From positions 960,001-1,024,000 of the forward strand of contig CM000434.1 in the NCBI GenBank assembly GCA_000165345.1: DNA of 64,000 nt. Reading direction: 5' to 3'. Shown piece after piece: positions 6,693 through 62,743 of the stretch (the stretch's first letter is position 1; every line of letters starts with the position of its first letter). The translations under genes were made by a program, and so were the position numbers. The notes beneath the pieces were generated by a model. The model saw only the letters and a list, made by a program, of their open reading frames with translations. It was not told where the DNA came from and did no database searches.

Positions 6693-9600
6693 TTACCACA
6701 AGTCTACATCAATATCCAGATCAGTAAGTGCCACATTTGTATCATCAGCTTGGTTGGAAACCTCTTGTAAGAATGCTGGAGTTTGTACTTCTCCTTCATT
6801 CGCAAACCAGCTTGCCATTTCATCAAGTTTACTGGTTTTGACAGCATTCGCCTTTGGCGCCATATTTACTGTCAATTTTTGCTTTTGTAATGTAGGTCTG
6901 GATTCTGTTGTTCCTCGTTTAGGTTGGGAAACTGATTTCTTTTCTGATAGTTTAAGCTTGACTGTGCTTGCGCTCTTTTCTCTCTTTGCGAGATTTTCTT
7001 GCTTTTGTTTTAATCTTCGTTCTTCATCCAACTTTGTTTTACGTACGAGATCTACTGATGAAATGAAATTCCATAATACACGGAAATAATCTGGCCAAAC
7101 AATTCTTTGAATCGTATTTTGCGGTTCTCCCAAGTATAGTGCCATCTTTTCTAGATTTTCTTTAACACTTTTCATAGTTGCTACTAAATCTTCAATTCTA
7201 GGCTCAGTATCGGAAACAAAGTCTGCTAGAATCTTAGCAATGGGATCCTTTTCTCCCATAGGGCCGGCTCTCTCATTACTTTTCTGAGCTGATTTCATTG
7301 TATCTGTGACCTTATTTAAAGATCCATTCAGTGATTGAATTTCACCTTCAATAGCACCTAAATCGCATTTGGCTGCTTTCTCTACTAAAGCCAATGGCTC
7401 TGCCAAAGAAAGCAATTCTGGCTTATCTCTCCAAATAATCTCTGTGATATATTGAAGCAAAGTTTTAATAGGTTTAGTACTCGAACGAACTTCACATAAC
7501 TTTGATAGTGAACTCATTCTAAAACCTTTAGCTTCTCCCTTTTCTGTATTAAGATTCAAAACATTACCAACTGAAAGAATTATAGAAAATACTTTCTTAA
7601 GCTTTGAATTTGTCTTAATTTCGTTGCAAACTGTAATAATCTCTTGTAAAGGCGTCATTAATTCATTAAAGGAATTGTCAAACGAAAGAATAAACAGCTG
7701 AGCGTTCAAACGAGCGCCAAACATTGGAATACCAATCATTGCAGCTATAAATTGTTCAGGCTTATCCAACTGAGTCAAGTCACCTCCTGCATCAATATAC
7801 TCTTTTACGATTGCAAACTCTTCTGGAGTTGGGGTCATTAAAATCAAAGCTTCTGTAGCTTCTGTATCCAAAATCTTCTTATCAAGATCCAATATAGCAT
7901 CACGCAATTGTTGGAATGTATATGCACTGAACTTTGATAATGCAATACTTATATTGTATGCTCTCTTTGAGTCTGGTAAAATTTGCATGACCTTTGGCTT
8001 CTTTGTCGCCTCTGTCGCCTTCTTTGGTTTTGCTGATTCGATACCAAATACTTCCTCCAAATTTCCGAAATCCAACTTGATTGGTTCTTTAATATCCCAA
8101 ATTGTACCTTGAATATTCTCAACCTTATCCCAATGTAACTTCTTTGTCTTCGATTCTGGACCACTTGGCTTACTTCCTGTCTTTCCTCCAAATTTCCCTG
8201 CCTTTCCTTTTGGGGGTCCTTTTCCTGTTGGGGGTCCTTTCCCACCTGGTGGTCCTTTTCCCCCTGGAGGACCCTTTCCTCCTGGAGGTCCTTTCCCTTT
8301 CCCTGGTGGGCCCTTTCCTTTTGCTGGCGGCGTGCCCTTTGCCGGTGGCGCGCCCTTTGCCGGTGGCGCGCCCTTTGCTTCTGCTGGTTCTGCCTTTGGT
8401 TCTGTAGGAGCACCTTCTTTTGCTTGCGGTGGCGGAGATTTGTTAATAATGTTGTCCATTTTCCCAATACCATCCAGCAATCCAGATAATGCCTTTCCTG
8501 ACTTTACACCTGCTCCTACAATACCTGTGTATACCCCTCCATCCGAAGGTTTGTATTGAATCATTGAGCTAATAAGGGCGCCAACTCCGCTACCTTTAAG
8601 AAGTTCTATCACACCCTGTGAATCAGGAGAAGGAAGTCCCCATTTTGCTGATGCTGTAAGAGCAATTCTAGTTGAAGCGCATACAAATGGCTCAAGATCG
8701 ATCACATAAGGCAACTTTGTTACTACGTTACCCCCATCATCTAAAAATGAAATGCATGCAAGTCTTTCATTACCAGATTCTTCTACATCAGGTTTTGCTC
8801 CTTTAATCTTTGCTAAAATATCATCTGGAGGAAGTTGTTGATCGATACCTACTATCTGAGTCTGAGTTACTTTAACTTGTTTAGCCTCCTCCTTATCTTT
8901 ATTTCTTTGTCTAACTAAAGGAATCAATGCATTTGGAATCCATATTGATTCTTTGAAATAAGCCTTCATTTCTTCCTTACCTGCATAATCTACTAATGGC
9001 AAATAAAATGGTAAACCTGTACTCTCATCTTTTTCTATTTGAGTTAACAACTTCCCTTCTGGAGTTATACAAGGTTCTGGAATCTCCCATTTCTCCAAAA
9101 CTGTCTGAGCTTCTTCATTTATCATCATTGTCACTGACTGCTCTCCCATAACTGGGAATCCTCTTGTTAACTTTGGAATGTTTATTATAGGTAACTTCTT
9201 TCTTTCTGTCTTACTAAATGGAGGAAGAGAAAGCATTGTAGAAACTCCTAGATAGTCTGGACCTGTAATTCTTACTTTCAAGTGAGGTAAAATTGCTGTT
9301 GAACTCACTGTCATACTCTGAAATGACTCTCCATGTAGTGCTCTGATTCTTGAAGTGCATAAAAGTTGTTGAGTTTGGTTATTTGAAAATGGGGTACTTC
9401 TATTTAACCCTCTCAAATTCTTTGGATCAAATAAAAAAGTCTCCAATTGTCGATACCTTAATTGATCAATACTTGGACAAATTGGACTTGCTAATAATGG
9501 TGATTCCTCATACATTATTCTTGTTAATTTACTTGATTTTCCTAAGGTATCGGTAATTATTTCTTTTAAAGATCTCTCTGCTCTTGATTCTAGTGATTCT

Positions 9601-11609
9601 CTTGCATCAATACACTTGTTCTGAAGCTCATGAGCTATATAAGAGTCTGTACAACTGCTTACATTCTCTGTTAAGTATACTTGGGTATCTGCATCTAATA
9701 AAGTTATCAATTCTAATACATATCTTGTATCAGGATGATCAAATCCTAAGTTCTCTCTTCTATATTTATAAACCTCATTATAAAGCTCTAAAGCATATCT
9801 AAAGTTTCCAGCCTGGTGAAAAATACATCCCAAAGCTAGTATATTGTCTTGTACTAATGGAAACTCTCTGTTATTGTAGATCCTCATTAACATATCTAAA
9901 GCTACCATTATATGTTGTACTCCTTGTCTACAATCTCCAAGTAATCGATAAACTAATCCCAAATTTGAATAGCAATCAGCTACACGAGGATGAGGTGGAT
10001 TCTTATTATGATCTCCCAGAACCTGTTTTCTGATTTCCAGACAATTATGTAACATTTCCTTACATTTTTCAAAATTCTTTATTCTGAAATAGTAACTTGC
10101 TGCTGTAGAGTATGCATCACTCATAACTAAGTCTCCTGAACCATAAACTTCATTTACTAATGAAAGATATTTTTCAAGGTAAAATGCTGATGATGTATGA
10201 TCTCTATACATACTACATAGATCAGAGACTGTTAGTACCAGACTACATAATACTGAAGAATCACATGAAACTGATGGTCCTACAGCTGTAACATTTTGAG
10301 TTGAACCTCCAGATCCTGATAAATTTGAGATATTGCTAATATGAGAAGAATCATTTTTTGCATTTTTATTCTCAGAATTGCGATCTGCAACAGCTAAGAT
10401 GGTATTTTCCACAAGAAATCGAAGCTCTTTAAGATATTGTTCTCCTTTACGTAATTCTCCTGTTAAACCACAACATTTAGCAATAATGATTAATTCTACA
10501 ACCATTATACCTTCTAATGGGTGTCCAAGGTACTTGGATAGAAAAGCTCGAGATATTTCATAACAATGTAAAGCATTCAGCATGGCATCTGAGTATTGAG
10601 CTTTCAAAAACTTCTCTAAAGCTGAGCTTCTTAGTCTTTGAATGATTCTTTGAATTTCATGTATTTCTCCATCTCCACGTGATTCTTCAAGACGTTGTAA
10701 AAGAAGAAGGGAATCTGTCATAATTTCAAACTTCTCATTAACAATTTGAGGTCTGGCTTTTGTTGTTTGTCCAAATAAGAGATTATTCTTTTCAGAAGTT
10801 GTTAGTGTAAAGTGTCTACTTGCAAACTCTTCTTTAAATGTTTGACTTAAAGCTGCTAGTGAGTGTTCAGCAGCTTCTGTTAATGCTGGATCCAATACAC
10901 TTACGTGTAGATTAAACATATCATCTTCTCTTTGAGAAATTCGAGCATTTCTTCCTTCTTTTTTTTTCAAGTTACTTTTTCCAGGAGCTTTATCTTGGAA
11001 AAGTAGACGTTTAATAGGGCCAACATCAAAAGGAAGAGTTGATTCAACAAAGGTACTTCTATTACTTAATTCTGAGTAACGTCCATCTTTAGAGAGATTG
11101 TTCTTCAATAGTTTAGATTCACCATTAATAGTGGTTGCAGTAGAAGATGCTCCTGTTGAGCTGGAAGGTAGACTACTAGCTTTGGAATCTTTACTTATAC
11201 TTTTCAGAACAGTTTTTGCTGAGGCTGGCTTTGATGGTACGCTTACTGGAGGAGCGTGACCATTGGATACTGGTGTATCATTTAAAGGTTCTGATGAATT
11301 TTTAGGTATTGGGGCCTTTGGGGCTGGTTTTAATGCAGTAGGAGGTCCTTTTGAGACCTTTGGACCAGGAGGAGAGGGTGATGGAGAAGCTGACTTTGGT
11401 GGAGGTGGTGTTGATGGTTTTGGTGGAGGTGGGGATGATGGTTTTGGTGGAGGAGATTCTGAAAGGTTTGGAGAAGGAGTTGAAGATAATTTTGAAGGTG
11501 GTGGAATTTTCGTTGCTGGTTTCCCTCCAAGTGGTTTAGCAGGGGGAGGCGGTTTTTTTCCACCAGGAGGAGAAAGAGGAGCCTTGCCTGGCACACCCAA
11601 TTTTTTCAT
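6693..11609 (-). CDS. Formin (FH1-FH2) with a proline-rich N-terminus and TPR-like repeats before the FH1 region.
   Basis: FH1 region of (GKGPPGG)n and (AKGAPP)n repeats, followed by an FH2 signature ('KKLHWDKV...IWD', 'GIPMFGARLNAQLF', 'LNLNTEKGEAKGFRMSSL'). N-terminal TPR-like units include 'YSNLGLVYRLLGD'. The N-terminus has a 'PPPPKPSTPPPPK' stretch. Starts at a true ATG at 11607-11609. Confidence 0.8.
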   Translation of the reverse strand: MKKLGVPGKAPLSPPGGKKPPPPAKPLGGKPATKIPPPSKLSSTPSPNLSESPPPKPSSPPPPKPSTPPPPKSASPSPSPPGPKVSKGPPTALKPAPKAPIPKNSSEPLNDTPVSNGHAPPVSVPSKPASAKTVLKSISKDSKASSLPSSSTGASSTATTINGESKLLKNNLSKDGRYSELSNRSTFVESTLPFDVGPIKRLLFQDKAPGKSNLKKKEGRNARISQREDDMFNLHVSVLDPALTEAAEHSLAALSQTFKEEFASRHFTLTTSEKNNLLFGQTTKARPQIVNEKFEIMTDSLLLLQRLEESRGDGEIHEIQRIIQRLRSSALEKFLKAQYSDAMLNALHCYEISRAFLSKYLGHPLEGIMVVELIIIAKCCGLTGELRKGEQYLKELRFLVENTILAVADRNSENKNAKNDSSHISNISNLSGSGGSTQNVTAVGPSVSCDSSVLCSLVLTVSDLCSMYRDHTSSAFYLEKYLSLVNEVYGSGDLVMSDAYSTAASYYFRIKNFEKCKEMLHNCLEIRKQVLGDHNKNPPHPRVADCYSNLGLVYRLLGDCRQGVQHIMVALDMLMRIYNNREFPLVQDNILALGCIFHQAGNFRYALELYNEVYKYRRENLGFDHPDTRYVLELITLLDADTQVYLTENVSSCTDSYIAHELQNKCIDARESLESRAERSLKEIITDTLGKSSKLTRIMYEESPLLASPICPSIDQLRYRQLETFLFDPKNLRGLNRSTPFSNNQTQQLLCTSRIRALHGESFQSMTVSSTAILPHLKVRITGPDYLGVSTMLSLPPFSKTERKKLPIINIPKLTRGFPVMGEQSVTMMINEEAQTVLEKWEIPEPCITPEGKLLTQIEKDESTGLPFYLPLVDYAGKEEMKAYFKESIWIPNALIPLVRQRNKDKEEAKQVKVTQTQIVGIDQQLPPDDILAKIKGAKPDVEESGNERLACISFLDDGGNVVTKLPYVIDLEPFVCASTRIALTASAKWGLPSPDSQGVIELLKGSGVGALISSMIQYKPSDGGVYTGIVGAGVKSGKALSGLLDGIGKMDNIINKSPPPQAKEGAPTEPKAEPAEAKGAPPAKGAPPAKGTPPAKGKGPPGKGKGPPGGKGPPGGKGPPGGKGPPTGKGPPKGKAGKFGGKTGSKPSGPESKTKKLHWDKVENIQGTIWDIKEPIKLDFGNLEEVFGIESAKPKKATEATKKPKVMQILPDSKRAYNISIALSKFSAYTFQQLRDAILDLDKKILDTEATEALILMTPTPEEFAIVKEYIDAGGDLTQLDKPEQFIAAMIGIPMFGARLNAQLFILSFDNSFNELMTPLQEIITVCNEIKTNSKLKKVFSIILSVGNVLNLNTEKGEAKGFRMSSLSKLCEVRSSTKPIKTLLQYITEIIWRDKPELLSLAEPLALVEKAAKCDLGAIEGEIQSLNGSLNKVTDTMKSAQKSNERAGPMGEKDPIAKILADFVSDTEPRIEDLVATMKSVKENLEKMALYLGEPQNTIQRIVWPDYFRVLWNFISSVDLVRKTKLDEERRLKQKQENLAKREKSASTVKLKLSEKKSVSQPKRGTTESRPTLQKQKLTVNMAPKANAVKTSKLDEMASWFANEGEVQTPAFLQEVSNQADDTNVALTDLDIDVDLW
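8190..8400 (-). repeat. Coding tandem repeats (15-21 nt units, GGCGCGCCCTTTGCC-like) that encode the formin FH1 poly-proline tract.
   Basis: Several direct repeats of 'ggtggcgcgccctttgcc' and 'ggtcctttcc' units are visible in the sequence. On the minus strand they translate to GKGPPGG/AKGAPP. Confidence 0.7.
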
Positions 11610-12286
11610 AGTTGAATAATTTTTTTCTGTTTAAATATTAGTTAATTTAGACCTATTTGAGTATAACTCTTTAATTCTTTTCATTTATTGATTCTTTTTT
11701 TTTTTGACTCAGAGTTTTCCCAATCTAGAAAAGGGTCTAGATTGACATTTTCTTTCAATATTGAAGAAAAAAGCGTTATTCTTTGTAATTTGTTAGTTTT
11801 TTAATTTAGGGAATCTTAAAAATATCCACAAGAAATTTAAAAATAAAGAAAAAAAGAAAATGCACCCCTATCTCTGTGGTTTTTATAATTTTAAAATTTG
11901 TTGGGTATTTCCAGAAAATTTTCACCAGAGTTAGGGGTACTAATATATCTACATGCACACAAAGATATTATTGGTGTATTTTGGGAAAAAAAACAACAAA
12001 TATTTTTTTTGACAAGTTTTAGTGTTTGTTTTACTTTGAATTTTTACTATTGTATGTTCTTATTATCTTCTTTGTTAATTTCTATATCTTATAATTTTTT
12101 TTTTTGTAATTCAAAAACACATTTTAATTTATTTACAAATATGACGTGTGTGCATGGTAAGAAATTTATTGGGAATATTAATTTTTAAATTAATATGTTA
12201 AATGGAAAATATATTTAAAGAGAAATGAGAATAAAAGTAAAAAATTAATACATTTTTTTTTTAGATAAAAATATGAAATAGGATAA

Positions 12287-13312
12287 TTATCTAACAAGTT
12301 CCTTTAAAAAATGTTCGTAGTTAAATCCTCCATCATTAGATGGGAAATCCCTAATTAAAAAAAATAGTAAAAATGTTAAAAGCAGGTTGGGGGAGGCTGT
12401 TTGCATGCATTTACTTGCATGGCAAATTATCACTATACCGGCGTACATGCAAGATGTACAAATAGGCGGCATATGGCACGTATTGAAATATATGAACTTA
12501 CTTTAAAAGTATTTCAATTTCTTTATTGGTTAAAACTTCTCCTGTATTAGTTAATAGAGAAGTCAGCTGCTGGCTAGTGATTGATCCAGAGTTCTGTAAT
12601 ATTGGAAGAAATTGATGAATTAGAAATAATATTATAAATAGAAAATGGAGAAGTGGCACAAAGTATATTGAACTTACATTTGAGTCATACGATCTGAAAA
12701 ATTGAACTAGATTTTCAAAAGTGTCTTCTGGATGTACAATAGAATCACAAAATTTTACAAAAGCTTGTAAATCACATGTTTGACCAACACTTGCGACAAA
12801 TCTCTGGACTTCGCTTTCAGATGGCGCTAATCCCTAAAATTAGGAATAAAAGTGATGTTTAATTAATAATAAAAATGGAGTGGAAAACTGACCATTCTTC
12901 TAACAATTTCTCCAATTTTATTGGTTTGAATGGTTGGACCTCCTCCCTATAGTTTAAAAGAGAATAATGGTATTAAAAGATGATATTAAAGATTGCTTGG
13001 GATTAGGAGTTGGGGTTAATATGGCGGAGTAATGCATTTATTTCTCCATTTTACATATCCCAAGGATGACTTGGTAAAAGCTTAACTTACAGCAGCATCT
13101 CTGAATGAAAATTCAATTCTCTCTTTGGACTATAAATATGAAAAAAGAATTAATTTATTTGCAAAAAAAAAAAAAATTAAGTAATGATAATTAATAGTTA
13201 GTCATTTCTATGAGATTCAAGTTTCTTCCCTAGTTTCTCAAAATTCACTAAAGGAAGAAAAAATGGATGGAGCGTAACAATCAAAAGAACTTACAATCTT
13301 GAAAGGTGGCAT
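12287..13312 (-). CDS. Six-exon EF-hand (calmodulin / myosin-light-chain-like) gene of 140 aa. Exons in plus coordinates, 5' to 3' of the gene: 13312..13295, 13129..13091, 12946..12893, 12833..12678, 12593..12502, 12350..12287 (stop TAA at 12289..12287).
   Basis: Conceptual splicing gives 'MPPFKI|SKERIEFSFRDAA|GGGPTIQTNKIGEIVRRM|GLAPSESEVQRFVASVGQTCDLQAFVKFCDSIVHPEDTFENLVQFFRSYDSN|NSGSITSQQLTSLLTNTGEVLTNKEIEILL-K|DFPSNDGGFNYEHFLKELVR*'. This aligns along its length with calmodulin EF-hand pairs (for example FSFRD..GGGPTI..IGEIVRRMG versus [25 protein letters not shown]). Every exon is bounded by GTAAGT-type (or GTCAGT) donors and YAG acceptors, the phases are compatible, and stops flank each exon in frame. 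The track's ORF at 12287..12472 is the last exon plus readthrough of the intron. Confidence 0.7.
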
Positions 13313-13479
13313 CTAAATAACTGTATATAATTATTTTGCTTGCGATCTTCACACAAAATTGATAATCTATAAATTGTCTTTTTTTTTTAACTAAAATAAT
13401 TTGCTCTTGAATTTTTTCCCTCTTTATTTTTCATGCGCTTTTTTCTCTGTATAATAAAATCTTTATTTTATTTATTTCA

Positions 13480-13560
13480 AATATGCCGCCTTTTATTTCA
13501 CGACCAAATGGCAAAGCAGATAAAGGCGGGACTTTAGGGCGGGCAAATGTGCATGTTGAA
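13480..13560. promoter_or_regulatory. Bidirectional promoter core between the two head-to-head EF-hand genes, containing E2F-like GGCGGG motifs.
   Basis: 'atatgccgcc', 'aaaggcgggac' and 'agggcgggcaaatgtgcatg' lie between divergent ATGs at 13312 (minus) and 13878 (plus). Confidence 0.5.
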
Positions 13561-13877
13561 TCTTGTAATGTAAATTTTTCGATACCTTCGAAGTTAAAGA
13601 TTTAATAAAAATAAAAAAATTGTGAGGAATTTCAAAAAAAGAAAATTAAGCAAGAGTTAGAATTTAAATTGTTAAGATAAGAAGAATTTGTGACTGTAAT
13701 TGTTAAATATTGAGATACTGAACCTTTTATTTCTGAGAATTATTAAAGTGTAAGTGTGAGTTAATTTAGGGGACATTGATCAAAGAAAAAAAAGTATTGG
13801 CAAAACTGTTGTAATTGGGTTATTTAAATTTATTCATTTTTTTCTAAAAAAGGAGATTTAAAGTAAGAAAAGTAGAA

Positions 13878-14966
13878 ATGATTTCATTATTAAATGGAAC
13901 AGGATGTGTTTCTTGTACTTCTGGGTGCAAGGTTGTAATTGATGACTACAAAACTACAGGAAGAATAGAATATGGTGTATTTGTAGGATATTATTCTGAA
14001 AGTGAAGAAAGTGATTATGATGAATCAGATGTTGTTACTTTAGATAAGAAGCCTTCAAATATCCAAGATTCATCAAGTGCTGAAGCAGTCTCTATTGAAG
14101 ATGAATTAGAAGAAGGTGAAGCTGATATTATTAGAGAAATGTTTGATAATGCTTCATCTGGAGGAGAATGTTCATTAGATCAGACATGCCATTTAGCACA
14201 TAGAATGGGTCTAGCACCTTCTAAATCAGATCTTGAACAACTTAACGAAGAAACTGGTGGAAAAGTAACTTATGAAGATTTTGAAAGGTGGATTATGTCA
14301 ATTACACATCCAGAAGACCATATTGATTATATGGTTTCATACTTCAGAAAGTACGATTTGAGAGGAAATGGCAAGATTTCAAGACAGCAATTCATTTGGT
14401 TAACAAGTATTGGCGGTGATATTCTTACCAGAGAAGAAGCTGAAGCTATTCTTGATAAGTTGTCCATTGGAGGAGATGTGTACTATGAAGATTTACTCAG
14501 AAAAATTATGGATGTCGAAGCTTCTGATAAGCCTATGGTAAATATTGGAAACAAGAAATCAACGCCTACAAAAATGCCAACAACTAAAGTACTTGTGACA
14601 CAAGTTTCGACTACCATAAGAGATTTAGCTGATAATGAAGCATTCCTTCCTACTATTGATCTTCTTATGGCTTTAAAAGCAACCTATGGAAATGAATTAA
14701 CTGAAGCAGCTGCAAAAGAAGCCACAGATTGTTGTGAAAATCAGGATGAAGCTGCTAAATGTTTACAAGAATTCTACTCAGAGTGGGCACAAAATAAAGG
14801 TATGGTTTCTAGAAAAATTGTTAGAAGTCTACTTATGGTCTGGAAGGCTAAGTTAGACCAGGTTAGTGCTGAGGCTTGGATTACAAGCTTATGTGGAACC
14901 GATGAAAATATTGATATTCAAAGTGTTTTGAACAAGGTAGAATGCAAAACTAACGAGATAAACTAA
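13878..14966 (+). CDS. Intronless 362-aa EF-hand protein, a paralog of the six-exon gene above. The EF-hand core sits between an acidic N-terminal extension and a C-terminal extension.
   Basis: The core 'LAHRMGLAPSKSDLEQL...HPEDHIDYMVSYFRKYDLRGNGKISRQQFIWLTSIGGDILTREEAEAILDKLSIGGDVYYEDLLRKIM' is collinear with 'VRRMGLAPSESEVQRF...HPEDTFENLVQFFRSYDSNNSGSITSQQLTSLLTNTGEVLTNKEIEILLKDFPSNDGGFNYEHFLKELV' from the neighbouring gene. Confidence 0.7.
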   Translation: MISLLNGTGCVSCTSGCKVVIDDYKTTGRIEYGVFVGYYSESEESDYDESDVVTLDKKPSNIQDSSSAEAVSIEDELEEGEADIIREMFDNASSGGECSLDQTCHLAHRMGLAPSKSDLEQLNEETGGKVTYEDFERWIMSITHPEDHIDYMVSYFRKYDLRGNGKISRQQFIWLTSIGGDILTREEAEAILDKLSIGGDVYYEDLLRKIMDVEASDKPMVNIGNKKSTPTKMPTTKVLVTQVSTTIRDLADNEAFLPTIDLLMALKATYGNELTEAAAKEATDCCENQDEAAKCLQEFYSEWAQNKGMVSRKIVRSLLMVWKAKLDQVSAEAWITSLCGTDENIDIQSVLNKVECKTNEIN

Positions 14967-15264
14967 CTTGGAATATTTTAGCATTTTTTTCTTCATAAAT
15001 CTAAAACCTACTTATCCCTTTTTCAAAATCAATATAATCCAATTTTCCATTTTCCCCTTTTCTTACTTATAATTAAATTCTGCATGCATGCAATTAATAT
15101 TTTTTTTTAAAATTTGTGCAAATATTAACATATACCGGAGATTAGGCGCCAACTTATTTAATTTTTCTAATTAAATTTCTTGAATATTCAAAGAATATTG
15201 GGGTTTGAAAGTAAAAAATTAAGTTATCTAAGAACAAATAGTAATTATTTGTTCTAGATATAAA

Positions 15265-18200
15265 ATGAATGGAGGATTTAGGGGGAGAAACCATAATGTA
15301 ACAGAAGATCATTTGAATTACAATATACCAAATAACTCTATACAACCACAATATGTGAATGGCACGTCAACCCATGCTCTTGGAATCCAAGAAGCAACTA
15401 ATCTTACAAATTTAAGGGGAAATTTTATGGGGAATGATGGTTCTGACTATATTCCAGTTCAATTAAGAGCTGCTAATACTAATTTAAATACCAATCATTC
15501 CATTAGTCAGAATGTAAACCAGACAACCTATGGACAAAATCTCTATGATATTAATAGAAACGCTCCTGGACAAATGGGAACAAAGAGCTTTGGAGGATCA
15601 AGAATGGGAGTTGCTCAATCTAAGGGGATGGCTCACACTCAGCAAATTGGTATGCAGTATGGTGATTCTATGCAAAATGGGAATCAAGGCGCCAATATTG
15701 GAGCCATGCATGACTCTAATATTGCTTCTTATGGTGTTGCAGAAATGAGTTATAGGAGTGGAAATAGCAGTAGTAGTATTGGTAGTCAGGGTGTACATAA
15801 TAACATTGATTCCTCTGCTAATACTCAAAATGTCGATATCCACGATATTTCTATCCAGAATTCCTATATGAGTTCACAATCACAACCTAGAACAGTATCA
15901 AAATCGAGATCCATATCACATACTAGAACACAATCTCAGCCTGTAGCTATGGTTCATCAGCACCAATATCAACAACAACAGCAGCAACAGGTTCAACACC
16001 TTAATCATCAACAATACTTTCACTCTCAACAACAGCAGCAGCAGCGTATGCAGACCTTTTCTCAGTCTCAGACTCAGAACCAGACCCAAACTAAGACTCA
16101 GGCCCAAATCCATTCTCAGTCTCATTCCCAATCCCATGTTAAAGCCCCAAATCAGACTCAAACTCAAACTCAGGTTCATTCTCAAACCCAAATCCTATCT
16201 CAATCCCAGCCTCAATCTCGCTCTCATCTTCAGTCTCAGAGTTTGCCAGGTCCACAGTCCCAGACTTATTTTAGCCATACTCAGCCAAATAACAACATGC
16301 AGCCTCCTTCTCACCCGAGAACTCAACCATTACCACATCCCTACTCCCAAGGAAACCCAGGACATCAAGTATCATCTCAAAACTTCTCCAGTTCAAGCAT
16401 TCATCCAAATTTAGTATCAGCTCAAGGATCTCACGCACAAAAAAACTTCCAAAGCTTTTCATCTTCTAATATTAATCAGAGACAAATTGGAGACAATTTG
16501 AAAAATCCAAACCATGGAATTAATGTTGGACCTAATTCTATTTATACAAAAATAGATGATACCGGGGTGGGAACATCAGGAGTAGGAGGCAGTCAGTATA
16601 GGTCGAAGCCTTACTCTCAACAGAGTAATAAATACACTCATCAGCAACAAATGAATCCAGTAAACTCAATATTGCATCCAAACTATTCTCAATCTTACTC
16701 ACAGGGTTCTTCATCTAATTTAGGTGGATTGACAGAGACAGATTCTAAGACAATGTCACAATATATATCAACAATTGGATACAAGACAAGTAACATAGAT
16801 TTGGGAGTTTGTAGCTTTCAAGTCAACGTTCCAAACAATATTTCAGATGAATTAAGAAATTCTATTATTAGATTGGTTCCAAAAGAACAGCTCAACTCGG
16901 TATTTTTCCTTGTTTCATCATTAATTAGCAAGAGTATCAATTTTAGAGACTTTCATGTTCGTTTAATAGCTATTTTGAGGAGTAGTCAACTTGTTGAAAT
17001 TCTTGAAAATATGCTCAGAGATTACTTCCAACTAAGTACCTCTTCTTCAAATACAAATTACACTGGAATTGCTATTCATCAAGGTATCTCAGATTTAAGA
17101 GGTCAAATTTCTCATCCAATTACTACTAATAGCCAAGTTTCTGCAGGAAGATCTGACTATTTATTGGCATCACAATCTCAATACACATCTGGAATAGGCT
17201 CTAATAGTCAAATATATGATGGTACATTATTGAACTCTATGATTTCTCATGCTCACTCAAAAAAGTCTATTAGTAGACATGGAGGACATTATAATATGCA
17301 TGCAAAAGAGGATATATTATTACAGATGTTGAAACATGCAAGATCTAAATCTGTTGCAAGCTTTATAGGTATTGATATGACTGGACCTTCTTCTTATATT
17401 TCTAAAATAATCTCAAATAAAACTATACAAAACAAATCTATGGTATTGGAAGAAGAATCAATATCTCCAGAAACTCTTAATATTTATACGGAAAAACTTA
17501 ATAATTATGGTCGATACCTCCTTTCTTGTGATAGTTCACTTAACTTAGAATTTATGAATTCAAATCAACAATCTGTTACTTCTAAATTAGGGAAAATAGT
17601 TAAGTTTGGTACTCAGCCAGATTTAGAAAAATCAGTTTTCTCAAGTCAAGCAGTAAAGACAATCCATAAGTTAGCATCTTTCTATGTTAGGGATATACTG
17701 AAGTTCATCCTTAATGAGGAAAGTATAAGTAATGATAAGCTGAATGGTAAAGATCTTGAAGAAGAAGAAGAAGAAGAAGAAGAAAAAGGAAAAAAAAGGG
17801 AAGAGATACAACATAATCAAAGGGGACAAAGTGATCGTCAAATTATTGATGATCTGATTGGAAATAGTAATAGTATACAAGTTCAAAAAATGGAGAATTC
17901 AAAAACTGTTAGCCTTATATCTAAAGACTCAAGCTCTAATAATTCATGTAATTTTGGAATGGGTAAATCTATTGGAGGAAAAGGTCTGGGAATGAAGTTA
18001 ACTTTATCTGGTAACGTTTCCTCTGTAAAACCCATAATGATTACTAGTCTATGGTCATGTATATACAAATCCTTACGTTATAATATGAATAGATATAATG
18101 CATGCGAACCTAATGCTTTCCATAATATAATAATTAAGAATCGTCCAGGACATTCTAAAGAACAATGTTCGAATTATATTCTAATTCCAGAGTCAATGTA

Positions 18201-18267
18201 TAGAAGTGTTGAATCCTGGCTTCTTTCAAATGCTTATAATCAATGGGATAAACTTAGTATATTATAA
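15265..18267 (+). CDS. 1000-aa low-complexity protein, Q/S/N-rich with (QT/QS)n and poly-Q/poly-E tracts. The C-terminal third is non-repetitive. Function unknown.
   Basis: ATG at 15265. A hexanucleotide (CAGACT/CAGTCT) coding repeat spans 16051..16250 and a GAA repeat spans 17758..17784. I recognise no domain. Confidence 0.5.
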   Translation: MNGGFRGRNHNVTEDHLNYNIPNNSIQPQYVNGTSTHALGIQEATNLTNLRGNFMGNDGSDYIPVQLRAANTNLNTNHSISQNVNQTTYGQNLYDINRNAPGQMGTKSFGGSRMGVAQSKGMAHTQQIGMQYGDSMQNGNQGANIGAMHDSNIASYGVAEMSYRSGNSSSSIGSQGVHNNIDSSANTQNVDIHDISIQNSYMSSQSQPRTVSKSRSISHTRTQSQPVAMVHQHQYQQQQQQQVQHLNHQQYFHSQQQQQQRMQTFSQSQTQNQTQTKTQAQIHSQSHSQSHVKAPNQTQTQTQVHSQTQILSQSQPQSRSHLQSQSLPGPQSQTYFSHTQPNNNMQPPSHPRTQPLPHPYSQGNPGHQVSSQNFSSSSIHPNLVSAQGSHAQKNFQSFSSSNINQRQIGDNLKNPNHGINVGPNSIYTKIDDTGVGTSGVGGSQYRSKPYSQQSNKYTHQQQMNPVNSILHPNYSQSYSQGSSSNLGGLTETDSKTMSQYISTIGYKTSNIDLGVCSFQVNVPNNISDELRNSIIRLVPKEQLNSVFFLVSSLISKSINFRDFHVRLIAILRSSQLVEILENMLRDYFQLSTSSSNTNYTGIAIHQGISDLRGQISHPITTNSQVSAGRSDYLLASQSQYTSGIGSNSQIYDGTLLNSMISHAHSKKSISRHGGHYNMHAKEDILLQMLKHARSKSVASFIGIDMTGPSSYISKIISNKTIQNKSMVLEEESISPETLNIYTEKLNNYGRYLLSCDSSLNLEFMNSNQQSVTSKLGKIVKFGTQPDLEKSVFSSQAVKTIHKLASFYVRDILKFILNEESISNDKLNGKDLEEEEEEEEEKGKKREEIQHNQRGQSDRQIIDDLIGNSNSIQVQKMENSKTVSLISKDSSSNNSCNFGMGKSIGGKGLGMKLTLSGNVSSVKPIMITSLWSCIYKSLRYNMNRYNACEPNAFHNIIIKNRPGHSKEQCSNYILIPESMYRSVESWLLSNAYNQWDKLSIL
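16051..16250 (+). repeat. Coding hexanucleotide microsatellite (CAG-WCT)n that encodes the QTQTQ/QSQSH tract.
   Basis: Repeating 'cagactcag', 'cagtctcag' and 'caaactcaa' units are visible in the sequence. Confidence 0.7.
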
Positions 18268-20262: not shown

Positions 20263-22062
20263 GCAGTAGGGAGGTGATTGAATGAAGGAAATATATATTT
20301 ACTTTGTGGATTATTGGCAGCTGTTATCTTTATAACTCGCCATATGTCCCATTGTTAAGATATTTATTATTTTCAACATTTATTTCATTAATATCCAAGC
20401 ATAGAAGTAATATTAATAATTCTTATTACAATGTTTATAACAGTTTTTTGTTTTATTTCATTTCCGTGCCTTTTTTTGTTAGTTTCACAAGTGGGAGAAA
20501 ATGTATTTTAACTTAAATAATGTAATGGGTAAAAAATTTTTGGTTTTGTTATTCTATTTATCAAGAACAAACAAATCTCTTATTTTTCCCTCCATTGCTA
20601 ATAATATTTCCTTTGGGGGAAAATTCTCTAAAATTTTGATCCAAATGAATCTCCAATAGCACTGATATGACTGTCAATACTAGAAATTTGTGCAAAAATC
20701 TCATTCAAATATGCATGCTTAGATTTTTTGTTGACACGTGTGGCGGTAAAAGCATGCAAATTTGTAAATACGTGTTTTGCAGATTCGCCGTACCGGTATT
20801 GCCAGTGTGAATTTTAACCACATAAACATGAATATGTGCATGCACAATTAAATTAGTTGTGAGGAACTAATGCTAAATTTTTACAAACAATTAAAATAAT
20901 TAAAAATTTTAGAATTTGAAATTCAATAGTTTTACCTTCAATCTCAAGAAGGAATATGCAATATATATATATGCATGTAAATATATATTAAAATAAACAA
21001 GAATCAATGAAATGACAAACTTAATTCAAATTTTCATTTATTCAATAAGCTATTATTTAATGAAAAATTGCAATTTTTAAGTCATTTATGTTCAGAAAAA
21101 TTAGGCGCCAATGCATTCCTTCATAATATTTCCTATTCCACCCCCCACATTACATTTGTTTTACTTGTAATGCTATTTGTGCAAGAAGTATAAAGCATAT
21201 ACAATTTTTGGAAATAAGTCAAAATTAAGAAAGGAATAAAATTTGGGATTTGAATTATTCAAAACTTTAAGAGCACGATTTGTGAACAATTTGGTATTCA
21301 AAAAGAAAAAAAAACAAGTAAACTTCAGAATATAGGTCACCCAGAGACAAAAAATATAGTTCTATTATTTTCATTAATATAAAAAAGCGACATACCAAAA
21401 TATAAATGGAGTTTATATTATTATTATTATTGTTATCGGGTCTCAAATAAAAAAATAAACTTTACTTCAAAATCTAATTTTGTATTAATATTTAATTTAT
21501 TTGTATTGGCTATAAACTGATCCAAGCAATAATCTCAGGAAGATATAAATAAATACCAATTAATACAGAAGGCAATAATAATAATAATAATTTTTAACTT
21601 TCTAATAGTTTATTCATACTTTTACACGCAAATTTATATTTTCAGATTCTGGAATTATTGCAAGTTTTTCTGTCGCAGAATTTGGCGGGCATAATTTCAA
21701 GATAATTCTTATGGTTGATCATAATTAAAAATATTTTTTCATTTTTGCCAACAAATTTGTTGGCTGAAGAAATAATAAAAGATAAACATTAAATTAATCT
21801 AAAGGAAAAATTGGAATTACGAAGTTTTTTTTTCTAGGGTGGAATTAAGCTATAATTATTAAGAAGATCTAAAACACACAAAACATAAGATAATTAGAGA
21901 TCTGAATGAATAAGTTCTCATTTATATTTGCTCATATATAATATATCTTAATAAAAGATTATAATATATGAACATTGTTATATTTACACACATTTATCAC
22001 ATAAATTGCAAATTTCCCAAGTATTTTAATATCTTTGGGAATTCTACTTATAACTTACTTTC

Positions 22063-31296: not shown

Positions 31297-33548
31297 TATA
31301 AGATCATTTGGTTTTGATTTGAAATTTTTTAATTGCTTGGAAGAAAACGCATTAATAAAGTCAGCAAAAATTTGAGACTTATACACAATTATTTCAATCA
31401 TAATCAATTGACATATCATTTATTCGGTCAATTTTATTGATTAATGCACGTTATAATCATTGTCATTACTTTGGATTTCTAGAATTGTCAGGGCCTATGC
31501 CGAAAAAACCACTATTATGGCGGGTAGTTAATAATTGGTGAATTATTTCCCTTTGTGCCACATTGATATTTAGGCGGTAAAGTGACAATTTATATTTTAA
31601 ATCTCGTTTTTATTGTAATTAATCGAGGGATTTTAAATGACAGATTTTCTATTACTATTGTAATTGATTATATTAACTACCTTATAATTTAGGTATTTAG
31701 TTTAGGCATTCGGATTTGAATGCTTTTTTTATGCTATATTCGCCGTTAAAGTGTGGCTGTGCAAGTATTTTCTGAGTATTGTTTAGAACTTAGACTTAGG
31801 TTGCGTGTTTAGTGTAGATTATTATCATTCTTAATGGGGGGTAATTTTAATTTACAGTCTAGTAAAAGCTTCGTTTTAGAGTCAAATTCAATATTATTGA
31901 AATTGTACATTATACTTGAAACCAAGATAGTTGATTTGCAAATTTATTCTCTACTACCGAATATTCCACTATTAGTTTTAGACCCACTAATATAGACGTT
32001 GGTTTTGAATTAAATAACTTAGATTTATTGAAATTGAGGAGAATATTTCCGATTAAGCATTATATTATTTTTATGATAAATTTGTTTCTAAGAGTGAAAA
32101 GATATGTATGTTATTAAATAATAATAAACCCTTAAAATAAGAATTATAATCGTAATTGCATCAATATATATTGCAATAATAAAAGTGTAAGACTAATTTT
32201 TAATTATTAGCTTACCAGTACTTTTTAATCAAGGCTGTTTATTTTATTTGATTTTTTTTTTTTTTTTTTTTAAGTTTAAATCACTCATTGCATTCCACCA
32301 GACTTAGATGAAGGTAGAATAGGAGACAATTTGTAATAAAGAAAATATTAATGTATTTATTTTTATATGTTCAAGAAACCTTTATTAGTTTGGTTTTAGT
32401 TAATGTTTAAGCCATTGAGATTTTGCTAATTGTGTAATTACTTTTTCAAAAAAAAAGTGAAATAGTATAAAAGCATATGAATGGGAGAATGAATAAAAAG
32501 TTTCTTGATATAACTTTTAAAGTAAAACTTCATTAAAATAGTTGAACAAAAGATTAACACAAGTATAAAAGATAAAATTTGGGTGAATAATTAGAAGATT
32601 TTATTTTTGCAGAAAAAAAAAGATGAATGATTTACTATTAATTTTTGCTTAAGCAATAAAATTCAATTATAAGAAGGAAGATCTACTAAAATTTTTGAAT
32701 ATATTCTTAATATTTATGCAGTCCATTATTAAGAAAATCAAATATGAAACATTAATTTTTAAATTTTGATTTAGTTTGAAATGAAACTTGATGTTAATTT
32801 CTTTCAGAAATAAAATTTAAAAGCTTCTCATAAGAGTATCTTTGAAGAAGTATTTTCATTTTTATTAAGTAGCATCTGGAAAATAAGAAATTCTCATTTT
32901 TTTTTTGTATATATCATACATTTTAAAACTTAATTTTTCTATTTTCTCATTTTACCGCCATAATCAGAAATACATGTTATTCCTTTTTTCTATTAAAAAA
33001 TTGGTTTCTTGCTAGTAATTCTTTTTTAATAGTTTTATACTCCTTTTCATTAAAGATTAAGTTTTAAATTATTTCTAAATCAGTAAATTTTTTTTTCTTT
33101 GTTCTCATTTCTTTCAGAATTATACTAATTTGTTAGTATTTGACAACTCAAACAGGCGGGCTGCCTTGCATGCATTTAATTTGTATTGAGTTTTTTTGCA
33201 TCTGATTTTTTCCCCACATTGTACACGTAAGCGATTTCAATTACGTGTTTTTGCGGTAATTAAAATAATAACTATATGCCGGCATTTACATGCCAAATAA
33301 TTTTAAAAAGAAGTGTAGGATTGCATGTGGATGCATGCGAGTAGAATTAGCTGGTGAATAACAAGGAGAGTGCATTAATTAATTTTTGATATGAAAACTT
33401 AGAAGGTGGAAGAAGAGATAAAGTTGAATATATTAATTTTTAGATAGGGTATAAATGTATATTTATATATATTTATATTTTTAATTGACAGTAATGTTTT
33501 AGAGTTGAGCAGATAAGAATCCCATATTATTGCTAAAAGGTGTAATAA

Positions 33549-62423: not shown

Positions 62424-62743
62424 TCAAAAAGATCCACTTGATAATTTTAAGTACGAAATTTCCTGTTTTAAAATAAATTATTACTATTATTATTATTATT
62501 ATTACTTTCTACTAAAAAAAGAATCTAAAAGACTAAGGATGTGTATTAAAGCTAGAAATGCATGCATGCATGCAATTATAACGGTATCGATTAAACCAGC
62601 TTAAGAATTTTCTTTTCTTGAGGGTGAAAAAAAAAAATTCACTCCTAGATTATCTCATTTTCTGTTGTATTCCTTTCTTAGAGTGTTACAAAAGTCCTGA
62701 ATATACTAAACTTAGTAAACATGTAATTAAAAAAATCAATAAT

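Follow-up and report, generated by a model that had tools for sequence, protein, structure and literature searches.

In this work we have analysed a gene at positions 12287-13312, on the minus strand, of a 64,000-nucleotide stretch of Cryptosporidium parvum DNA (contig CM000434.1 of assembly GCA_000165345.1, positions 960,001 to 1,024,000), to which we refer as the window. Taken as a whole, the results are best explained if this is a genuine, expressed-type gene of C. parvum chromosome 6, with six exons and a product of 140 amino acids which is a two-lobe, four-EF-hand light chain of the MLC1/MTIP/MLC4 family, and we put the probability of this reading at about 0.85. When the minus strand was spliced at the junctions proposed in a preliminary description, which had been made from the sequence of the window, we obtained six exons which form an open reading frame (ORF) of 423 nucleotides (nt). 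The exons, junctions and phases of that description were exact to the base, all five junction pairs being identical to those we found, and its translation of the spliced product was the same as ours.

Fold, EF-hand loops and family

The assignment of the 140-residue protein to the MLC1/MTIP/MLC4-type light chains is well supported, both by sequence comparison and by its predicted fold. The AlphaFold model, with a predicted local distance difference test (pLDDT) score of 80.7, consists of eight helices arranged as two lobes, and its loops contain short beta bridges; together with the matches to EF-hand families, this agrees with the four EF-hand units which had been read from the sequence. In a Foldseek search the model came closest to the Toxoplasma protein TgMLC1 as it is seen in the MyoA complexes 5VT9 and 6TJ5; complexes of apo-calmodulin with IQ segments and other myosin light chains came next, and the best 50 matches were all calmodulin, troponin C or myosin light chains. 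In the C-lobe, residues 77-135 matched the Pfam family EF-hand_7 (PF13499) with 38.2 bits against a cutoff of 30. A phmmer search with the N-lobe (residues 1-83) gave E-values of 6e-12 for TgMLC4, 4e-9 for TgMLC1, 1e-3 for the Plasmodium protein PfMTIP and about 5e-4 for calmodulin or troponin C, which amounts to a preference for MLC4/MLC1 over calmodulin by 5-8 orders of magnitude. GLAPS and HPED, two signatures of the MLC1/MTIP/MLC4 type, are also present in this lobe. The preliminary description had likened the protein to myosin essential light chains (ELC) or calmodulin-like proteins and had suggested a profile search to establish the family. In this search EF-hand_7 scored above its cutoff and MLC4 and MLC1 were the best matches of the N-lobe, so that the likeness to myosin light chains stood; the closest relatives, however, are of the MLC1/MTIP/MLC4 type, and the ELC part was not borne out. 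The protein is neither an ELC nor a true calmodulin. Nor is it MLC1 or MTIP proper, because the N-terminal anchor of those proteins is absent: the first EF helix is preceded by 8 residues, and the chain has neither an N-terminal cysteine nor a glycine at position 2.

Could the protein be a second, ELC-like light chain of the MyoA glideosome motor, which sits at the proximal IQ motif of the neck and is made together with an adjacent MLC1/MTIP-like protein from a shared bidirectional promoter? The two genes lie head-to-head, with 565 bp and two GGCGGG boxes between their start codons, their synteny holds across the genus, and all EF loops of the 140-residue protein are degenerate. Its size and the lack of an N-terminal anchor also fit what we take to be the general size and plan of an ELC. 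However, MLC1, MLC4 and MTIP chains are among the best sequence and structure matches, and no ELC chain was found among the best 60 phmmer or the best 50 Foldseek matches; the entries which contain an ELC (5vt9, 6tj5 and 6zn3) were matched via their MLC1/MTIP chains. The GLAPS and HPED signatures in the N-lobe also speak against an ELC, and the adjacency of two genes in a compact eukaryotic genome is weak evidence that their products share a complex. On balance we regard this explanation as possible, but doubtful.

A calmodulin-like calcium sensor, unrelated to myosins, is what UniRef suggests by the name 'Calmodulin' on the C. parvum and C. hominis entries. Calmodulin is indeed the best full-length match in the PDB (E-value 5e-18, residues 6-139), and its length and its four-EF-hand, two-lobe fold are like those of our protein. 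The identity is nevertheless only about 28-33%, the N-lobe is MTIP_N-like and favours MLC4/MLC1, and the canonical 12-residue calcium loop (D-x-D/N-x-D/N-G-...-E) was found in none of the four EF-hands. Read against the calmodulin alignment, the EF1 loop, DAAGGGPTIQTNK, has 13 residues without acidic ligands, and the EF2 loop is 4 residues short. In the EF3 loop, DSNNSGSITSQQ, glutamine replaces glutamate at position 12, and EF4 has proline at position 1 (Phe121 stands just before the loop) and histidine at position 12. EF3 degenerates further in C. andersoni (YDIKNTKTITKK). With no calcium-ligand pattern in any loop, a sensor function seems very unlikely to us.

Gene structure and intron history

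All six exons are read from the minus strand. Exon 1 (13295-13312) has 18 nt, begins with ATG, encodes MPPFKI and is followed by a GTAAGT donor; in four intestinal Cryptosporidium species the methionine, the short exon and the donor are kept, and in C. andersoni the exon has 9 nt and encodes MKL. Intron 1 (13130-13294; 165 nt, phase 0, GTAAGT..TAG) is also present in other Cryptosporidium species, where its length is 137-309 nt. Exon 2 (13091-13129; 39 nt, SKERIEFSFRDAA), which encodes the first helix of EF-hand 1, is separated from exon 3 (12893-12946; 54 nt, GGGPTIQTNKIGEIVRRM) by intron 2 (12947-13090; 144 nt, phase 0), which falls between DAA and GGG. Intron 3 (12834-12892; 59 nt, phase 0, GTCAGT..TAG) lies between RRM and GLAPS and leads to the longest exon, exon 4 (12678-12833; 156 nt, GLAPSE...YDSN), with the rest of the MTIP_N-like N-lobe, the HPED linker and the first part of EF-hand 3. 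Intron 4 (12594-12677; 84 nt, phase 0) lies between DSN and NSG. Exon 5 (12502-12593) has 92 nt, which encode NSGSIT...EILL and provide two nucleotides of the codon for K120, and after the phase-2 intron 5 (12351-12501; 151 nt) the gene ends with exon 6 (12287-12350; 64 nt including TAA, DFPSNDGGFNYEHFLKELVR). Four of the five donors are GTAAGT and the other is GTCAGT; the acceptors are TAG in four introns and CAG in one. The introns are all AT-rich, with a GC content of 0.24-0.36 (highest in intron 5) compared with 0.34 in the coding sequence.

Support for this structure comes from five other species, C. canis, C. ubiquitum, C. bovis, C. ryanae and C. andersoni. At the syntenic locus of each of them all the exons are present and in order, their borders are GT..AG at the homologous sites, and splicing gave an intact ORF of 134-140 codons, so that with C. 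parvum the structure is seen in six species. Compared with C. ubiquitum, nucleotide identity is 0.78-0.89 in the exons and 0.54-0.69 in the introns, whose lengths vary freely. With a ratio of nonsynonymous to synonymous substitution rates (dN/dS) of 0.08 in the comparison with C. ubiquitum and of 0.12 in that with C. bovis, the gene is under purifying selection. The preliminary description had held that a best homologue supporting exon 4 (12678-12833) alone would speak against the gene; the calmodulin chain mentioned above aligns across all five joins, and the gaps in this alignment lie only inside exons. A structure with five such joins is far beyond chance. That the locus is non-functional, either a series of ORF fragments that arose by chance or a pseudogene in decay, might be suspected from the 2003 annotation, in which nothing was called, and from the truncated or mis-spliced public models of several species, but this is effectively refuted by the intact spliced ORF in six species, the low dN/dS, the canonical splice sites throughout, the confidently predicted fold and the fact that re-splicing mends the faulty models.

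Read without splicing, the gene meets a stop at codon 25, and retention of any intron but intron 4 adds a stop. If intron 4 were retained in vivo, the result would be an isoform that is still in frame. A product of 110 residues which reads through this intron (P0008) was called on a Logan contig by gene calling of the prokaryote style; in it 28 hydrophobic residues are put into EF-hand 3. The ATG directly follows an AG, which raised the possibility of a further coding exon upstream; we rejected this, because the codon that abuts the ATG is an in-frame TAG and because the AG is not kept in C. ryanae. The ORF of 61 codons which the preliminary description had noted as the only one between 11.6 and 13.9 kb is indeed there, at 12287-12472, and corresponds to intron 5 read through into exon 6; it is not the only one, however, since the ORF list also contains a TTG-initiated ORF of 96 codons on the plus strand at 11898-12188, which looks spurious.

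It was fair to say that five introns stand out. Reannotation of C. parvum with cDNA and RNA sequencing raised the share of intron-bearing genes from 4.3% to about 10.8% and added 74 genes; intron-bearing genes have 2-10 exons with a mean of 2.6 (PMC4637869). Six exons are thus in the upper tail, yet within the known range. Where do these introns come from? We mapped the introns of TgMLC4, of the related Babesia gibsoni gene and of TgMLC1 and placed them on one alignment. Introns 2 and 3 of the C. parvum gene have the same position and phase as introns of TgMLC4 and of the B. gibsoni gene, and introns 4 and 5 have the same position and phase as the first two introns of TgMLC1, with an exon of 92 nt between them in both genes. 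Because four of the five introns share position and phase with TgMLC4, the Babesia gene or TgMLC1, the intron load was inherited and not gained, and these four are retained ancestral positions, older than the split of these light-chain lineages. A fifth common position, near the C-terminus of TgMLC1, TgMLC4 and the Babesia protein, is absent in C. parvum. The Babesia product P0046, a Logan sequence, is spliced at the two common N-lobe positions; it probably comes from a transcript assembly, and if so, both introns are truly removed in Babesia.

Orthology and proposed role

The protein may be the orthologue of TgMLC4 (TGME49_294390; PDB 9YA0, chain QA), which is our best guess, although unproven. 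Among the matches of the N-lobe TgMLC4 ranks first (36% identity over residues 9-114), and the two proteins share a GLAPSE motif followed by a C-D-L motif (TCDL/RCDL) as well as two phase-0 intron positions, one between A and GG and the other directly before GLAPS. TgMLC4 differs in its N-terminal extension of about 30 residues and in its divergent C-lobe with the insertion DLADKKDDDL; its gene is without introns 4 and 5 of C. parvum and has a C-terminal intron with no counterpart in C. parvum. TgMLC1 and PfMTIP, the light chains of the MyoA tail (PDB 5VT9, 6TJ5 and 2QAC), gave the top Foldseek match, align with both lobes (E-value 1e-16) and share the GLAPS and HPED motifs and non-canonical EF loops, and TgMLC1 shares introns 4 and 5 with the homologous exon between them. 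They differ in having an N-terminal extension of about 65-80 residues with acylated cysteines, which serves as an anchor to the inner membrane complex. The third group comprises Babesia proteins of 136-148 residues (B. gibsoni KAK1445182.1 or P0046, and those of B. bigemina, B. caballi and B. divergens), with about 31-39% identity. They are like the C. parvum protein in length (140 residues), in having no N-terminal extension and in the same two N-lobe intron positions; they differ in a C-terminal phase-2 intron of their own, which is absent from C. parvum, and in lacking the C. parvum introns 1, 4 and 5.

A word-index search for homologues, with either the single protein or a profile of seven sequences as the query, returned Cryptosporidium and Babesia proteins only and no orthologue from Toxoplasma or Plasmodium. 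We also carried out an exhaustive search of representatives, in which 20 matches were named; many of the others were multi-EF-hand giants and unnamed metagenomic proteins. In a neighbour-joining (distance-based) tree built from the matches of this search with 500 bootstrap replicates, an apicomplexan superclade of myosin light chains which includes the 140-residue protein was separate from the calmodulins in 80% of replicates, and in the sampled set Cryptosporidium proteins were among the nearest non-coccidian neighbours of TgMLC4. Two entries, P0064 (Hylaeus volcanicus XP_053993260) and P0184 (Ochotona princeps LOC131479456), are apicomplexan MLC1-type light chains filed under a bee and a pika, and the pika entry is 71% identical to TgMLC1. 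Both entries most likely reflect parasite DNA, gregarine or coccidian, in the assemblies of the hosts.

Several results weigh against our reading, some of them against the family as a whole and others against the choice of MLC4. The match to MTIP_N (PF21550; 22.2 bits, residues 6-71) is below the gathering score of 27 bits, and the full-length scores of calmodulin (68.9 bits), TgMLC1 (64.6) and TgMLC4 (64.2) are alike. The TgMLC4 group was the most frequent sister of the protein in the tree, but in only 44% of replicates, and in the exhaustive search the representative of an MLC1-type cluster, P0043, scored higher (77 bits) than the representative of TgMLC4 (64 bits). The named comparisons left out TgMLC2, 3, 5, 6 and 7, ELC1/2 and PfELC. 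Intron positions fail as an arbiter between MLC4 and MLC1: two introns are common to each of them, so they cannot decide the orthology. The splicing in C. parvum rests on comparative evidence and on the annotation of others, and the literature we searched contained no evidence for the binding or localization of the Cryptosporidium protein.

What might such a light chain do? It is established by the matched PDB structures that MLC1 and MTIP wrap both lobes round the neck or tail helix of myosin, and from family resemblance we infer that the 140-residue protein may bind a myosin in the same way. We propose that it is most likely a constitutive, calcium-independent light chain whose two lobes would clamp round an IQ-like helix in the neck of an unconventional myosin and so make the lever arm stiffer. 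Because it has no calcium sites and no membrane anchor, it would be a constitutive subunit of the neck, placed in the cell only through its myosin. In Toxoplasma, MLC4 is found on the neck of MyoL with two calmodulin-like proteins at the preconoidal ring P2, in a complex that also holds Formin 1 (PMC12819142; PDB 9YA0). MyoL acts as a tether at the preconoidal ring, and orthologues have been reported in Cryptosporidium (bioRxiv 10.64898/2026.01.06.697858). By this analogy the Cryptosporidium orthologue of MyoL at the preconoidal ring is weakly suggested as the partner, and it is our best guess.

Neighbouring genes, annotation and significance

The MLC1/MTIP-type paralogue which lies head-to-head with the 140-residue gene is intronless, is read from the plus strand at 13878-14966 and encodes 362 residues (359-365 across Cryptosporidium species), 33% identical to its neighbour. 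It matches MTIP_N (4e-13), TgMLC1 (6e-17) and PfMTIP (2e-16, aligned from residue 53, within the N-terminal extension) and has a cysteine-rich N-terminal extension, MISLLNGTGCVSCTSGC..., so the anchor role of MLC1/MTIP would fit this paralogue much better than the 140-residue protein. It also has a C-terminal extension of about 150 residues (residues ~215-362), which has no Pfam match and is absent from TgMLC1 and PfMTIP. Downstream of the 140-residue gene and on the same strand (6693-11609) is a formin of 1638 residues with TPR and FH2 domains, which matches Toxoplasma Formin 1 (9ya0_BA) with an E-value of 1.7e-206. The order formin, 140-residue gene and MLC1-like gene is kept at all five of the syntenic loci listed above. 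Three genes related to actomyosin thus adjoin at 6693-14966, and the preconoidal ring P2 of Toxoplasma includes both FRM1 and MLC4. The next gene (15265-18267, 1000 residues) has no match in Pfam or the PDB, so the motility neighbourhood does not reach it.

The spacer of 565 bp between the divergent start codons (13313-13877) is presumed to be a shared promoter, and its two GGCGGG boxes are at 13525-13530 and 13538-13543. This motif occurs 20 times in the window where about one copy is expected (other sites include 6278, 6617, 19136, 19150, 63652 and 63667), and when these sites were compared with the ORF list, most of them fell between ORFs, often in pairs. We take it to resemble the E2F-like promoter motif described for Cryptosporidium. 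The palindrome TGCATGCA is also frequent, with 15 copies in the window where 0.65 are expected, among them one in intron 5 (12402-12409), others at 15081-15092 and overlapping tandem copies at 62559-62574. Intron 5 has further GCATG-type motifs beside it, and C. ubiquitum and C. canis also have clusters of this type in their intron 5. One could imagine that the Formin-1-like, MLC4-like and MLC1/MTIP-like genes form a genus-wide actomyosin-motility cluster, in which E2F boxes would act as a bidirectional promoter for both light chains and the retained introns, especially intron 5, would be regulatory, for example for the formin. This we consider unlikely, and co-regulation from the GGCGGG boxes or the motifs of intron 5 is speculation. 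If true, it would be a rare co-regulated functional cluster for parts of the apical ring and the glideosome in an apicomplexan, and it would give a reason why four ancient introns were kept in a genome that has lost most of its own.

Elsewhere in the window, scans of all 64 kb for tRNAs and Rfam families found nothing. Two intervals of 1.8 and 2.25 kb (20263-22062 and 31297-33548) contain no interior ORF of at least 60 codons apart from a TTG-start ORF of 70 codons at 20304-20516 that looks spurious. No gene is called in either of them in CP029785.1, and they are 3-4 times as long as the reported mean intergenic length of C. parvum (about 550-590 bp). Non-coding RNAs, long untranslated regions or further genes with small exons could be located in them.

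The gene had been described in the preliminary description as missed. This is true of the mechanical ORF list and of the 2003 record BX526834.1, in which nothing is called at the locus, but an identical 140-residue model is present in current GenBank records. The exact sequence has been deposited as QOY41303.1 (CPATCC_002990), KAL5368295.1 (CPHLJ_6g4155), WKS78531.1 and WRK33023.1, cluster members with at least 90% identity come from C. hominis (CUV06841.1) and C. tyzzeri, and the gene is called on the same strand and over the same span of 1026 nt in CP029785.1 and CM109966.1, which are C. parvum chromosome 6. The exact protein and its coordinates are thus known from the annotations of C. parvum IOWA-ATCC and HLJ, and as a gene model our result adds nothing; because an identical model is in the current public annotations, the finding is correct but ordinary. 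A literature search for the inferred identifiers cgd6_4155 and cgd6_4160 and for CPATCC_002990 gave no match, and the supplement of PMC4637869 contains cgd6_4150 and cgd6_4160, while cgd6_4155 was not found there. The names in use differ: besides 'Calmodulin', 'EF-hand domain containing protein' is used, and the UniRef name of the C. andersoni orthologue is 'Myosin light chain MLC4'.

We also observed that public models of the orthologue are faulty in at least seven other species or assemblies (P0003, P0004, P0005, P0006, P0007, P0009, P0024 and P0171). An intron is kept as coding sequence in the models of C. ryanae and Babesia gibsoni, GLAPSESEVQ is missing from that of C. meleagridis, the models of C. 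ubiquitum, C. muris and C. felis are truncated, and those of C. bovis and one of C. canis have spurious C-terminal tails. The fault lies in the annotation, since proteins of full length were obtained when the genes were re-spliced at the homologous sites.

The value added by this work is small and consists of a sharper family call, the result on ancestral introns and the list of faulty orthologue models. An entry named 'EF-hand domain containing protein' or 'Calmodulin' gains a more precise identity as a predicted calcium-insensitive light chain of the MLC1/MTIP/MLC4 family and as a candidate subunit of the neck of MyoL or MyoA. The light chains of apicomplexan motors have been studied as targets for drugs, and there are crystal structures of MTIP with a stapled MyoA-tail peptide and with a peptide-fragment chimera (PDB 4MZJ and 4R1E). 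A correct inventory of the light chains of Cryptosporidium is therefore useful, if not surprising.

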